From assembly GCF_001677475.2 (NCBI RefSeq), contig NZ_CP015229.1: DNA of 64,000 bases; one strand, given 5' to 3'. A model generated the notes under the pieces. The model was not told the DNA's origin, made no database searches, and was given only the letters and a program-made list of their open reading frames with translations. Shown here one piece after another: positions 7,484 through 58,689 of the stretch (within the stretch, counting starts at the first letter, position 1; the number at the start of each line of letters is the position of its first letter). Source of the DNA: Escherichia coli (GTDB lineage Bacteria; Pseudomonadota; Gammaproteobacteria; Enterobacterales; Enterobacteriaceae). The position numbers were made by a program, and so were the translations under genes.

Positions 7484-7575
<92 letters not shown>

Positions 7576-33049: not shown

Positions 33050-33086
33050 GCCTGATGCGACGCTTGCGCGTCTTATCAGGCCTACA
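33050..33086. repeat. REP element between cysA and cysM
   Basis: GCCTGATGCGACGCTTGCGCGTCTTATCAGGCCTACA, canonical REP, inside the cysPUWAM transcription unit. Confidence 0.8.
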
Positions 33087-53391: not shown

Positions 53392-53421
53392 CGCCTTTAC
53401 TCCCTGTTAGTTGTTATTTAT

Positions 53422-53506
<85 letters not shown>

Positions 53507-53507
53507 T

Positions 53508-55531: not shown

Positions 55532-56935
55532 TTAAACAATGCGAAACGCATCGACTAATACACAGCGACGCAGACGGACAAACGTCCGCGCGCTGGTTAC
55601 CCCTTCACCGGTTGGCGTGGTGATGGTCATGGTGGTCCAGCCTTCCCCGCCCAGCCCCAGCCCGGCAATACACGGTCCGTTCTTAACGAAAATGCTGGTA
55701 TCAATGGCATTCGCCATCTGGTTCATGTTCTCGATATTGCGCGAGTGCATTGCCGCCGTGTGGTGGCAACCGCCTTCCAGTTTCACCGCCAGCGCAATGG
55801 CATCCGCCACGTTGGCGACGCGCACGACGGGCAGCACCGGCATCATCAGTTCAGTCACAGCAAACGGATGTTCTGCGGTGGTTTCTACAAACAGCAGTCG
55901 CGTTTGTTCCGGAACTTTAAGGCCGATTGCCGCCGCGATTTTCGCCGCATCGCGACCAACCCAGTCACGGCTGACGGTGCCTTTTCCGCGCTCGTCGATA
56001 TTTTTCAGCAACACCGGTTGCAGCTGCTGCGCCTGCTCTGCGGTCAGTTTCACCGCGTGCTGGCCTTCCATCAGACGCATCAGTTCATCGGCTACGCTAT
56101 CCACAACAATCAGTACCTTTTCGTCGGCACAAATGATGTTGTTATCGAAAGACGCGCCTTTGACGATGGACTGAGCAGCACGGGCGAGGTCAGCGGTTTC
56201 ATCCACCACTACCGGCGGGTTGCCAGCGCCTGCGGCAATCAGACGTTTATTGGTGTGTTTACGCGCCGCTTCTACTACCGCTTCGCCGCCGGTCACCACC
56301 AGAAGGCCGATGCCCGGAAACTTGAACAAACGTTGCGCGGTTTCGATATCCGGATTGGCCACGGTCACCAGTAAGTTTTCCGGCCCGCCTGCAGCAACAA
56401 TTGCCCGGTTGAGCAGCGTAATCGCTCGCTGAGAGACTTTTTTCGCCGCCGGATGCGGGGCAAAAATGACGCTGTTGCCCGCAGCAATCAGGCTGATGGC
56501 GTTATTAATAACGGTCGCCGCCGGGTTAGTGGACGGCGTTACCGAAGCCACCACGCCCCAGGGCGCGTTTTCAATTAGGGTCAGGCCGTTGTCGCCGGTC
56601 AGCACCTGCGGAGAGAGGCACTCAACGCCTGGTGTGCCGCGCGCCTGAGCGACGTTTTTGGCAAATTTATCTTCGACGCGCCCCATGCCGGTTTCACTGA
56701 CGGCAAGTTCCGCTAAATCTCTGGCGTGTTTTTCGCCTGCTTCACGAATGGCAACAATGGCTAACTGGCGCATTGCCACGCTCTTTAACCCTTGCTGGGC
56801 AATTTTGGCTGCCGCAACGGCGTCATCCAGGGACGCGAAAACGCCCATCTCATGAACGGCGGCGGGCGGCGTATCACTGCTTTGCATTTTCAGCAGTACC
56901 GCTTTCACCACCTGTTCAATATCCTGTTGATTCAT
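55532..56935 (-). CDS. eutE: Acetaldehyde dehydrogenase (CoA-acylating) EutE
   Basis: 467 aa; MNQQDIEQVVKAVLLKMQSS. Confidence 0.96.
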   Translation of the reverse strand: MNQQDIEQVVKAVLLKMQSSDTPPAAVHEMGVFASLDDAVAAAKIAQQGLKSVAMRQLAIVAIREAGEKHARDLAELAVSETGMGRVEDKFAKNVAQARGTPGVECLSPQVLTGDNGLTLIENAPWGVVASVTPSTNPAATVINNAISLIAAGNSVIFAPHPAAKKVSQRAITLLNRAIVAAGGPENLLVTVANPDIETAQRLFKFPGIGLLVVTGGEAVVEAARKHTNKRLIAAGAGNPPVVVDETADLARAAQSIVKGASFDNNIICADEKVLIVVDSVADELMRLMEGQHAVKLTAEQAQQLQPVLLKNIDERGKGTVSRDWVGRDAAKIAAAIGLKVPEQTRLLFVETTAEHPFAVTELMMPVLPVVRVANVADAIALAVKLEGGCHHTAAMHSRNIENMNQMANAIDTSIFVKNGPCIAGLGLGGEGWTTMTITTPTGEGVTSARTFVRLRRCVLVDAFRIV

Positions 56936-56946
56936 GATGTTCTGCC

Positions 56947-57234
56947 TTATTTGTGGAAAATTACCTGACCGCCAGACACCACCTCATCGACGATGCCAAT
57001 CACGCACAGATCGACCGGTGACGTTTCGCTTTTATGCGCCTGGCGGGCGGAACTGCCACTCACCAGCAACACCCACTCCCCGGTTCCCGCGCCAATATTG
57101 TCGATGGCGACGGCACATTGCCCGTCAGGATTACCTTGTGGATCAATCATTTCCACCATCAGCAATTTGTCATGCGCCAGTCCGTGATGGCGTACGGTAC
57201 AAACAATTTGTCCAGTGACGACTGCCAGTTTCAT
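56947..57234 (-). CDS. eutN: Microcompartment vertex protein EutN
   Basis: 95 aa; MKLAVVTGQIVCTVRHHGLAHDKLLMVEMI (EutN/CcmL fold). Confidence 0.95.
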   Translation of the reverse strand: MKLAVVTGQIVCTVRHHGLAHDKLLMVEMIDPQGNPDGQCAVAIDNIGAGTGEWVLLVSGSSARQAHKSETSPVDLCVIGIVDEVVSGGQVIFHK

Positions 57235-57340
57235 ACCCGCCTCCGTGGCGTATTTCAGGTAAAAGCTCCCCCTACCCTCCGCGGAAGGTAAAATGAAAAA
57301 TGAGAGAGCGTGACGCCCGAATCGACGTCACACAGGGTGA

Positions 57341-57634
57341 TTACAGGTTGCTGCTATCGCCTTTCAGGCCGATCGGGAAAACTTCTTCCAGGTCGCCGTG
57401 CGGGCGCGGGATAACATGTACAGATACCAGCTCGCCGATACGCTGTGCCGCTGCGGCACCGGCATCGGTCGCCGCTTTACAGGCTGCAACATCACCACGA
57501 ACCATAGCAGTACACAGGCCGCCGCCAATCTGCTTAACACCAACCAGTTTGACGCGCGCAGCTTTCACCATCGCGTCAGAAGCCTCAATCAGTGCAACCA
57601 GGCCCCGGGTTTCGATCATTCCTAATGCTTCCAT
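57341..57634 (-). CDS. eutM: Major microcompartment shell protein EutM (BMC domain)
   Basis: ORF track 111 aa; AGAGGA RBS supports start at [28 protein letters not shown] (97 aa). Confidence 0.95.
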
Positions 57635-57672
57635 TGTGCTTTCCTCTTTATCAGGGTCCAGAACGGGACCGT

Positions 57673-58689
57673 TCATTCAACCAGTGTTTGTAAACTGCTT
57701 TCGCGGTTCACTTCTGTCTGACGCGGCACAGCTGCCACCAGCGCCAGCTCGATAATTTCCTGCACGCTACAACCACGAGAGAGATCGTGCATCGGCGCGG
57801 CAAGTCCTTGTATCAATGGCCCGACGGCACGATATCCGCCGAGTCGTTGTGCGATTTTGTAGCCAATATTTCCGGCTTCCAGCGACGGAAAAACCATCAC
57901 ATTGGCCTTGCCTTGTAGCGGGCTGGCAGGCGCTTTTTGCGCCGCCACTTCCGGCACGAAGGCGGCGTCAAACTGCAACTCGCCATCGACTACCAACTGC
58001 GGCGCGCGCTCACGGACGATTTCTGTCGCCTGCTGGACGTTGGCAACGCAGGGGTGACGGGCGCTGCCGTTACTGGAAAACGACAACATCGCCACGCGCG
58101 GCTCTTCTCCGGTGATGGCGCGCCAGGTTTCGGCGCTGGCAAGCGCGATATCCGCCAACTGCGCCGCCGTCGGCTGTGGCACTACGCTGCAATCGGCAAA
58201 GCCCAATGCGGGGCCACTGTACTGTGGCAGCATCAGGAAAATGGAGGAGAGCGTTTTACAGCCTGGCTGTAAGCCAATAATGCGTAATCCGGCACGCAGC
58301 ACATTCGCCGTGGAAGAGAGATTGCCCGCGATACAGACATCCGCTGTCCCGGCGCTGACCATTGCGGCAGCGAACATCAGCGGATCGGTGAGTTTTTCCA
58401 GCGCATCCGGCGGCGTTTTTTCGCCCGCGCGGGCCAGCCAGCGATGAGCAAATTCTTCCCGCATTGCGAGGTTGCCATGCGGATCAATCACCTGTAGCCC
58501 GTCCATCGCCACGCCATGACTGAGCGCAAACTGACGAAGTTCAAACGGATTGGCGACCAGAATGGGCGTTGCCAGACCTTGTTGATGTAAATATTGCGCA
58601 GCTTTCAGCACACGTTGATCTAACGCATCCGGAAAAACTACTCTGGCGGGCGCTCGCAACGCCAGTTCACGACAACGTTCAATAATCAT
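57673..58689 (-). CDS. eutD: Phosphotransacetylase EutD
   Basis: 338 aa; [34 protein letters not shown]. Confidence 0.96.

Follow-up and report, generated by a model that had tools for sequence, protein, structure and literature searches.

A conserved folded RNA between eutM and eutN of the Escherichia coli eut operon, a candidate expression step-down

The stretch of DNA analysed here (the window) comprises 64 kb of Escherichia coli and carries the eut operon on its minus strand. The eut genes were identified through the annotation that RefSeq gives for matching genomes of E. coli. In the direction of transcription, eutD (57673-58689) is followed by eutM (57341-57634), which encodes the 97-aa hexameric shell protein of the BMC-H type, by eutN (56947-57234), which encodes the 95-aa pentameric vertex protein, and by eutE (55532-56935), all on the minus strand; eutM and eutN were delimited by the ORF list and the RefSeq annotation. 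The eutM stop codon UAA occupies 57341-57343 (eutM of K-12 is 294 nt long in RefSeq), and the eutN start codon AUG lies at 57234-57232. An earlier, sequence-only reading of the window had put the gap between the two genes at about 106 bp, and the untranslated spacer (57235-57340, minus strand) is indeed exactly 106 nt; its fold energy, single copy and match to a covariance model mark it as a folded RNA module. The description of the other eut junctions as overlapping or less than 20 bp apart was broadly correct, but eutM–eutN is not the only long gap: eutG and eutH are separated by 116 nt, eutD and eutM by 38 nt, and eutK and eutR by 45 nt.

The spacer is 100% identical to that of O157:H7 genomes and about 98% identical to that of most other E. 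coli. Position 57301, at the top of the lower stem of hairpin P2 described below, is A on the minus strand, as in O157:H7; in L001-L004, the other Escherichia loci, C takes its place (CUCUCUCA vs. CUCUCUCC). Two mechanically derived ORFs touch the region, i.e., one of 151 aa at 57300-57755 on the plus strand, antisense to eutM with its ATG inside the spacer, and one of 111 aa at 57341-57676 on the minus strand, an upstream extension of eutM that overlaps eutD; both are without support, and RefSeq gives the 97-aa eutM. A Term-seq study of MG1655 (Adams 2021, supplement) places the 3′ end of an antisense RNA at about 57401 on the plus strand (K-12 coordinate 2572217), about 60 nt inside the 3′ end of eutM, so that a plus-strand transcript must cross the spacer; no convincing sigma-70 promoter for this transcript lies in the spacer itself. 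The eutG–eutH gap (53392-53507, minus strand, 116 nt) holds a pair of REP sequences that form a BIME, GCCGGATGCGACGCATGTCGCGTTTTATCCGGCCT and GTAGGGCGGATAAGGCGTTTACGCCGCATCCGCC. The same gap measures 216 nt in K-12 MG1655, and REP content thus differs between strains. Inside eutN (57146-57173, minus strand), two promoter-like hexamers oriented toward eutE, ATGACA-16-AATGAT, match at 9 of 12 positions. Just two sites of this kind occur in 12 kb, below the number expected by chance, and the hexamer pair is probably meaningless; it would count if eutE through eutJ had a promoter of their own.

On the transcribed (minus) strand, the MFE fold of the spacer consists of two hairpins, P1 and then P2. 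P1 (GUGUGACGUC-GAUUCG-GGCGUCACGC; 57308-57333, minus strand) has 10 bp and a ΔG of −16.2 kcal/mol, begins 7 nt past the eutM stop codon, and contains a core, GUGACGUC/GGCGUCAC (57310-57331), of 8 bp including one G–U pair around the loop GAUUCG. It is the hairpin which had been noticed earlier as GTGACG-N10-CGTCAC with a stem of 6 bp; the hairpin is present, but its pairs were under-counted, as the 8-bp core extends to 10 bp. P2 (57265-57309, minus strand; ΔG −17.9 kcal/mol) directly adjoins P1 and is bipartite, with a lower stem of 8 bp (GCUCUCUC/GGGGGAGC), an upper stem of 7 bp (UACCUUC-CGCG-GAGGGUA) and, between them on the 5′ side, an internal loop of 11 nt; the stems total 15 bp. The U-rich stretch CAUUUUUCAUUUU (57290-57302, minus strand), which had been read as following the first stem, exists, but UCUCUC separates it from P1, and it forms the internal loop of P2 rather than a tail of P1. 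Likewise, the palindrome TCCGCGGA (57278-57285), proposed as a second small element, has no independent standing, since it comprises the loop and the closing pairs of the upper stem at the apex of P2. Downstream of P2 come a tail, UUUUACCUGAAAUAC (57250-57264, minus strand), the UUUUACCUGAAA part of which is invariant in 19 sequences, and the eutN start region (57232-57249, minus strand), consisting of a GCC-ACGGA-GGC mini-hairpin, the Shine–Dalgarno (SD) sequence GGAGG (57240-57244), a G+C-rich linker CGGGU, and the AUG (57232-57234). The folding energies for which the sequence-only reading had asked predict a stable structure, both for the single hairpins given above and for the whole spacer, whose MFE of −41.4 kcal/mol compares with −31.9 ± 3.5 kcal/mol for dinucleotide shuffles (z = −2.75), only 3 of 200 shuffles being as stable. 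A search for the P1 pattern gave one match in the 64-kb window and no match in 100 shuffles.

The element belongs to no family that we could find. A search of Rfam 15 over 56800-57800 on both strands gave no match up to E = 10, and nothing is annotated in the eutM–eutN spacer of E. coli genomes in RefSeq, including K-12 MG1655. Our literature search returned no description of a eutM–eutN element, while an older mention of Salmonella REPs at this position is possible. Of 5426 complete E. coli genomes, 5407 carry the spacer, each in a single copy. When the element was turned into a covariance model, the model matched the 64-kb window once only, at this site. As an intergenic palindrome 7 nt past the eutM stop codon, P1 resembles the REP/BIME elements, which are extragenic palindromes near stop codons; however, P1 and P2 are single-copy and without similarity to the REP consensus, and membership in that class was rejected. 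REP-like matches elsewhere in the window lie at 7506 and 7540 (a pair, 7506-7553), at 33072 (single, 33072-33085), and at 53443 and 53469, showing that true REPs are multi-copy here and that P1 is not.

Most of the other classes of element considered for the gap were rejected. The hairpins do not form the pair of A1/G4 hexaloops expected of an ANTAR (EutV-type) target, as the P1 loop is GAUUCG here and 4-22 nt long in relatives and P2 is closed by a CGCG tetraloop. For a Nus-factor boxA (GCUCUUUAACAA-like), the corresponding E. coli sequence, GCUCUCUCA, is base-paired in P2 with covariation, Citrobacter has CCUCUCUCC, and the core is matched in a single Buttiauxella spacer. Of the small reading frames in the gap, neither the GUG frame of 19 codons in E. 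coli nor the Citrobacter mini-ORF beginning with AUG is conserved, and the indels are not multiples of three. A scan for sigma-70 promoters found none on either strand; by eye, a TAAAAT on the plus strand lacks a −35 element. A CRP site (TGTGA...TCAC) would have the wrong spacing, which moreover differs among species, and the spacing between the arms of P1, 4-22 bp, is incompatible with a fixed dimer site for a protein that binds DNA at an inverted repeat. GGA motifs, as putative sites for CsrA, are found at two places, in the GCC-ACGGA-GGC hairpin at the SD and on the 3′ side of the P2 loop.

A scan for EutN in one genome per species returned 48 loci. In the 42 loci with eutM directly before eutN, which belong to the Enterobacteriaceae, Pseudomonas nitroreducens and two Rhodocyclaceae, the gap measures 52-211 nt without exception. 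Escherichia, the C. freundii complex, three other Citrobacter genomes and Klebsiella spallanzanii have spacers of the P1/P2 type, which score 115-133 bits with the covariance model; weaker relatives (27-38 bits) occur in Buttiauxella and Entomohabitans, both of which keep the UAYCUGAA of the tail. In Yokenella the covariance model has no match, but a hairpin like P1 is retained. In Salmonella, K. pneumoniae, K. oxytoca, K. michiganensis, K. grimontii, C. amalonaticus, C. koseri, C. sedlakii, Pseudocitrobacter and Pluralibacter, on the other hand, the spacer is of the REP/BIME type; P1, P2 and the tail are absent, and only the SD-proximal bases are left. All 18 spacers tested are more stable than their own shuffles, with z values between −1.3 and −5.0. 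In every P1-type locus, 5-9 nt separate the stop codon from the start of the P1 hairpin, and in the REP-type spacers the first hairpin apparently lies within about 20 nt of it, as judged by eye from MFE folds. Since P1/P2 and REP/BIME elements alternate at the same gap, the constant feature is a long, strongly folded and untranslated spacer, nearly all of it paired, with its first hairpin inside the footprint of a ribosome on the eutM stop. The EutM of K. spallanzanii, which has an Escherichia/Citrobacter-type spacer where its congeners have REP spacers, is 98% identical to that of E. coli, and Citrobacter is split in the same manner between P1/P2 and REP spacers. The split suggests that the content of the spacer has been replaced more than once or that the eut locus has been transferred.

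Within the P1/P2 type, it is the structure that is conserved. An RNAalifold consensus on 19 sequences recovers both P1 and P2, and standard pairs occupy 98.7% of the cells of this alignment, compared with 50-65% when the partners are slid by 1-3 columns. Compensatory changes are seen at three pairs of P2 (C–G/G–C, A–U/G–C, and C–G/U–A), and their number rises to nine once Buttiauxella and Entomohabitans are added, in an alignment that is model-fitted and thus biased toward the structure. In the model-fitted alignment of 22 distinct sequences, P1 is paired in 100% of cells, and one of its pairs is seen as C–G, U–G and U–A. Seven of the eight P1 pairs are invariant over six genera, and in Yokenella the outer pair has changed from G–C to A–U. 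Outside the stems, the GGAG on the 3′ side of the P2 loop and the UUUUA after P2 are invariant in the 19 sequences. Between E. coli and Citrobacter or K. spallanzanii, identity is 88-100% in the P1 stems and 75-88% in P2 and the tail, falls to 13-29% in the P1 loop, and is 60-70% at the third codon positions of eutM and eutN. Conserved stems around a drifting loop are the signature of a hairpin selected as a hairpin. P2, the GGAG of its loop and UUUUACCUGAAA are conserved beyond the needs of a generic hairpin, and a further, specific role for them is possible.

The two genes flanking the spacer are expressed at very different levels, EutM being the most abundant and EutN the scarcest of the shell proteins. 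In a proteomics study of E. coli K-12 W3110 grown with ethanolamine and B12, the relative amounts were EutQ 100, EutM 96, EutL 39, EutB 37, EutE 27, EutC 24, EutS 11, EutD 10, EutK 8 and EutN 1 (PMC11334477), on an iBAQ-type scale that may under-report a 95-aa protein such as EutN. In E. coli LF82, RPKM values in minimal medium/bile salts were 108/357 for eutD, 55/177 for eutM, 5/62 for eutN, 14/149 for eutE and 13/147 for eutJ (PMC6379400). No other two neighbouring genes of the operon show as large a drop as eutM and eutN, 11-fold uninduced and 2.9-fold induced in this single RPKM table, in which eutN is a gene of only 287 bp. Both RNA and protein rise again at eutE, after eutN. The sequence-only reading had suggested that eutM is raised over the genes downstream; the largest RNA drop and the EutM and EutN values of 96 and 1 fit this general idea, but since eutE, EutB and EutL are well expressed, strong termination at the spacer is excluded. 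Termination explains a few-fold effect at most, and the rest of the roughly 100-fold difference between EutM and EutN is largely specific to eutN.

The same LF82 table holds two further patterns. Across the eutG–eutH gap the RNA goes up, from 35/168 RPKM for eutG to 106/514 for eutH (PMC6379400). Without induction, eutD and eutM stand far above their neighbours (eutT 13, eutD 108, eutM 55, eutN 5 RPKM), and they are induced only 3.2-3.3 fold, compared with 10-12 fold for eutN, eutE and eutJ (PMC6379400). These values give a hint of a constitutive promoter inside the operon, upstream of eutD, with a transcript that would end at the eutM–eutN spacer. K-12 Term-seq data taken with eut uninduced list no sense-strand 3′ end at the spacer (Adams 2021, supplement).

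A second, eutN-specific feature is the start site of the gene. On paper the SD of eutN, GGAGG at 5 nt from the AUG, is strong. In this window, opening the start region from −18 to +12 is predicted to cost 12.9 kcal/mol for eutN and 4.6 kcal/mol for eutM. Over 42 loci eutN has a mean of 12.2 kcal/mol, eutM one of 6.6 and eutE one of 7.4, and the value of eutN is higher than that of eutM in all 42 and than that of eutE in 40 of them; the closed state of the start site is predicted from these opening energies of related, non-independent sequences. Opening energies of eutP, eutJ and eutL are similar to that of eutN, yet EutL is abundant. The linker CGGGU between SD and AUG is unusually G+C-rich and is kept in nearly all Enterobacteriaceae, including those with REP-type spacers, and the start region of eutM is A-rich and by prediction the most open in the operon. 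A conserved helix sequestering the SD with convincing covariation was not found by RNAalifold over −25 to +60 in 25 loci, where the consensus reached only −7 kcal/mol. Some MFE folds contain a helix in which the 5′ end of the spacer closes on the SD, but the helix sits in different registers in different clades and is not supported as a conserved feature.

Based on these observations, we propose that the spacer is a conserved, folded untranslated RNA which brings about a post-transcriptional step-down of expression between eutM and eutN, a reading to which we assign a probability of roughly 0.5. Three contributions, each of which we infer, may combine in it. The long, hairpin-filled spacer would keep ribosomes that finish eutM from re-initiating at eutN; nearly all the other eut junctions are tight or overlapping, which would permit such coupling there. 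The hairpins could protect RNA ending after eutM by acting as a 3′ barrier against 3′-to-5′ exonucleases, and perhaps also cause weak pausing or termination, either of which would leave more eutM RNA than eutN RNA. Finally, the G+C-rich segment from SD to AUG would be hard to open and would make de novo initiation at eutN inefficient. The nearly complete base pairing of the spacer would offer little unstructured RNA to Rho and RNase E, and transcription would proceed into eutE–eutR. The presence of REP/BIME elements at the same position in sister genera suggests that a generic stable stem-loop near the stop codon is the essential property. What is found at this junction is what characterizes the decay-barrier and uncoupling class, i.e., a conserved stem-loop between a highly and a poorly expressed cistron with a step in both RNA and protein, and we infer that the hairpin is the cause of that step. 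Further observations stand against the step-down: eutN RNA is lower than the RNA of the downstream eutE, which neither a pure barrier nor a terminator explains, and REPs also colonise the eutG–eutH gap, so that the presence of REPs by itself is no proof of function.

The same step in RNA would be expected if the spacer were a leaky intrinsic terminator, in which P1 with the U-rich run, or P2 with UUUUA, halts a fraction of the polymerases and leaves eutS–eutM above eutN–eutR. P1 is listed as terminator-like by a simple terminator scan, the UUUUA that follows P2 does not vary, the biggest RNA drop of the operon falls precisely here, and the uninduced LF82 values for eutD and eutM (108 and 55 RPKM) over eutN, eutE and eutJ (5, 14 and 13) are those expected of a transcript ending in the gap. 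P1 and P2 do provide the G+C-rich stem-loop of an intrinsic terminator, but neither is followed immediately by the run of about 7-9 U; the tails are UCUCUCAU after P1, from which the U run is 7 nt distant, and UUUUACCU after P2. P1 and P2 score about −20 on a scale of the d'Aubenton-Carafa type, on which the trp attenuator and lambda tR2 reach +25 to +28; the formula used is a rough guide only and depends on where the hairpin limits are set (the rrnB T1 control scored −12.5 with A/U pairs counted in the stem). Furthermore, the tail after P1 is not consistently U-rich, there being no U tail in Yokenella or in any REP-type spacer, and covariation places the U-rich run together with CUCUCUC within P2, which deprives the U-rich stretch of the role of terminator tail that had been suggested for it. 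Downstream expression also speaks against it, as induced eutE RNA (149) is near that of eutM (177), and EutE, EutB and EutL reach 27-39 relative to 96 for EutM. We therefore consider a leaky terminator unlikely as the main explanation and retain partial termination, itself doubtful, as a minor contribution only. In a further reading, the spacer would be no passive barrier but a riboregulator that sets the ratio of the two proteins. P1 falls within the area covered by a ribosome that terminates on eutM; each termination event would transiently melt P1 and the C-rich 5′ end of the spacer and briefly free the otherwise closed eutN start, or else P1–P2 might be released as a stable operon-internal RNA with a target of its own. 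We regard this as a long shot. If true, EutN synthesis would keep a small and constant ratio to that of EutM whatever the level of induction, through translational coupling at a distance, and the riboregulator or released RNA would constitute a dedicated RNA device controlling microcompartment geometry.

Some bases are conserved beyond the requirements of pairing (seven of eight P1 pairs, the GGAG of the P2 loop, and UUUUACCUGAAA), which would fit a site for a specific factor, either CsrA on the two GGA motifs or NusB/S10 on the boxA-like GCUCUCUC, or an operon-internal sRNA made from the P1–P2 fragment. The GGA within the GCC-ACGGA-GGC hairpin at the SD points the same way, as do the sRNA-like order of parts, in which a 5′ hairpin is followed by pyrimidines and a hairpin with U4, and one Buttiauxella spacer with CUCUUUAAC, which we take to match the rrn boxA core. 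However, the genera with REP-type spacers keep a working operon without P1, P2 or the tail, an operon that can therefore do without any specific partner. The boxA-like stretch is paired with covariation and is not conserved in Citrobacter, the U4 tail is short for an Hfq-type sRNA, and the literature search found no link to any of these candidates. A specific factor or sRNA thus appears to us improbable. Another reading is that the spacer is non-functional filler, a tolerated gap in which hairpins (REPs or a fossil palindrome) gather neutrally, as REPs are mobile and occur in the eutG–eutH gap too, and the content of the spacer turns over among genera. Yet a spacer of 52-211 nt is found at every locus, out to the Betaproteobacteria, the element is single-copy and belongs to no repeat family, and the conservation of the P1 stems and of P2 far exceeds that of synonymous sites, with compensatory changes, while the loop drifts, all of which makes neutral filler very improbable. 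Finally, a hairpin so near the stop codon could throttle EutM itself by stalling terminating ribosomes. Liang, Rudd and Deutscher reportedly found in 2015 that REPs within 15 nt of a stop codon lower the output of the upstream gene, and P1 begins 5-9 nt past the stop in all P1-type loci, the first hairpin of REP-type spacers lying at about 20 nt or less when judged by eye. But EutM is the most abundant shell protein (96) and has the most open start in the operon, and selection to reduce it seems unlikely; we consider this the least probable of the explanations. We thus favour the post-transcriptional step-down between eutM and eutN.

Such a step would matter for the assembly of the compartment. 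An icosahedral shell needs about 100 times more hexamer (EutM) than vertex pentamer (EutN), although the two genes are adjacent in one operon. According to published work, loss of the vertex protein leads to elongated Eut assemblies, and moving the homologous pduN within its operon changed compartment size, shape and cargo loading (bioRxiv 10.64898/2026.05.01.722140). The conserved RNA at the eutM–eutN junction is a testable candidate for how the shell ratio is set, and the spacer is relevant wherever eutM and eutN are cloned together for synthetic compartments. Moreover, a unique element and REPs swap at one position of an operon, which bears on the long-standing question of what REPs do.

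Stem-loops within operons that set expression ratios are already known, and the single-copy, covarying two-hairpin element between eutM and eutN is found neither in Rfam nor in the literature searched. Among RNAs of eut loci, those of the Firmicutes include the dual-hairpin ANTAR targets of EutV and the EutX/Rli55 sRNA with its AdoCbl riboswitch, whereas enterobacterial EUT1 loci use EutR. P1/P2 shares with the Firmicute RNAs the form of a structured two-hairpin RNA inside a eut locus but differs in its P1 loop of 4-22 nt, its P2 tetraloop, and the lack of an Rfam match. The rplL–rpoB attenuator and the terminator T1 before dnaG in rpsU–dnaG–rpoD are operon-internal attenuators that set subunit ratios. 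Like them, the eutM–eutN element is a long, structured operon-internal spacer between a highly and a poorly expressed gene; unlike it, they are mapped terminators with proper U tails, and all the genes downstream of them are lowered, whereas the eut tails are poor and the genes after eutN recover. Intercistronic REP/BIME elements, the classic example among enterobacteria, e.g., at malE–malF, stabilise the upstream mRNA, attenuate transcription weakly, and affect translation near the stop codon. The eutM–eutN spacer likewise lies between genes of one operon, with a stem-loop a few nt past the stop and no perfect U tail, but P1/P2 is single-copy and locus-specific and has a second, bipartite hairpin and an invariant tail. 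The puf operon of Rhodobacter and papBA of E. coli contain intercistronic hairpins that act as decay barriers and give segments of the mRNA different stabilities. These hairpins have no sequence relationship to the eut spacer, but they also follow the gene of an abundant structural protein, whose RNA outlives the rest, and by analogy P1 and P2 may do the same for eutM.
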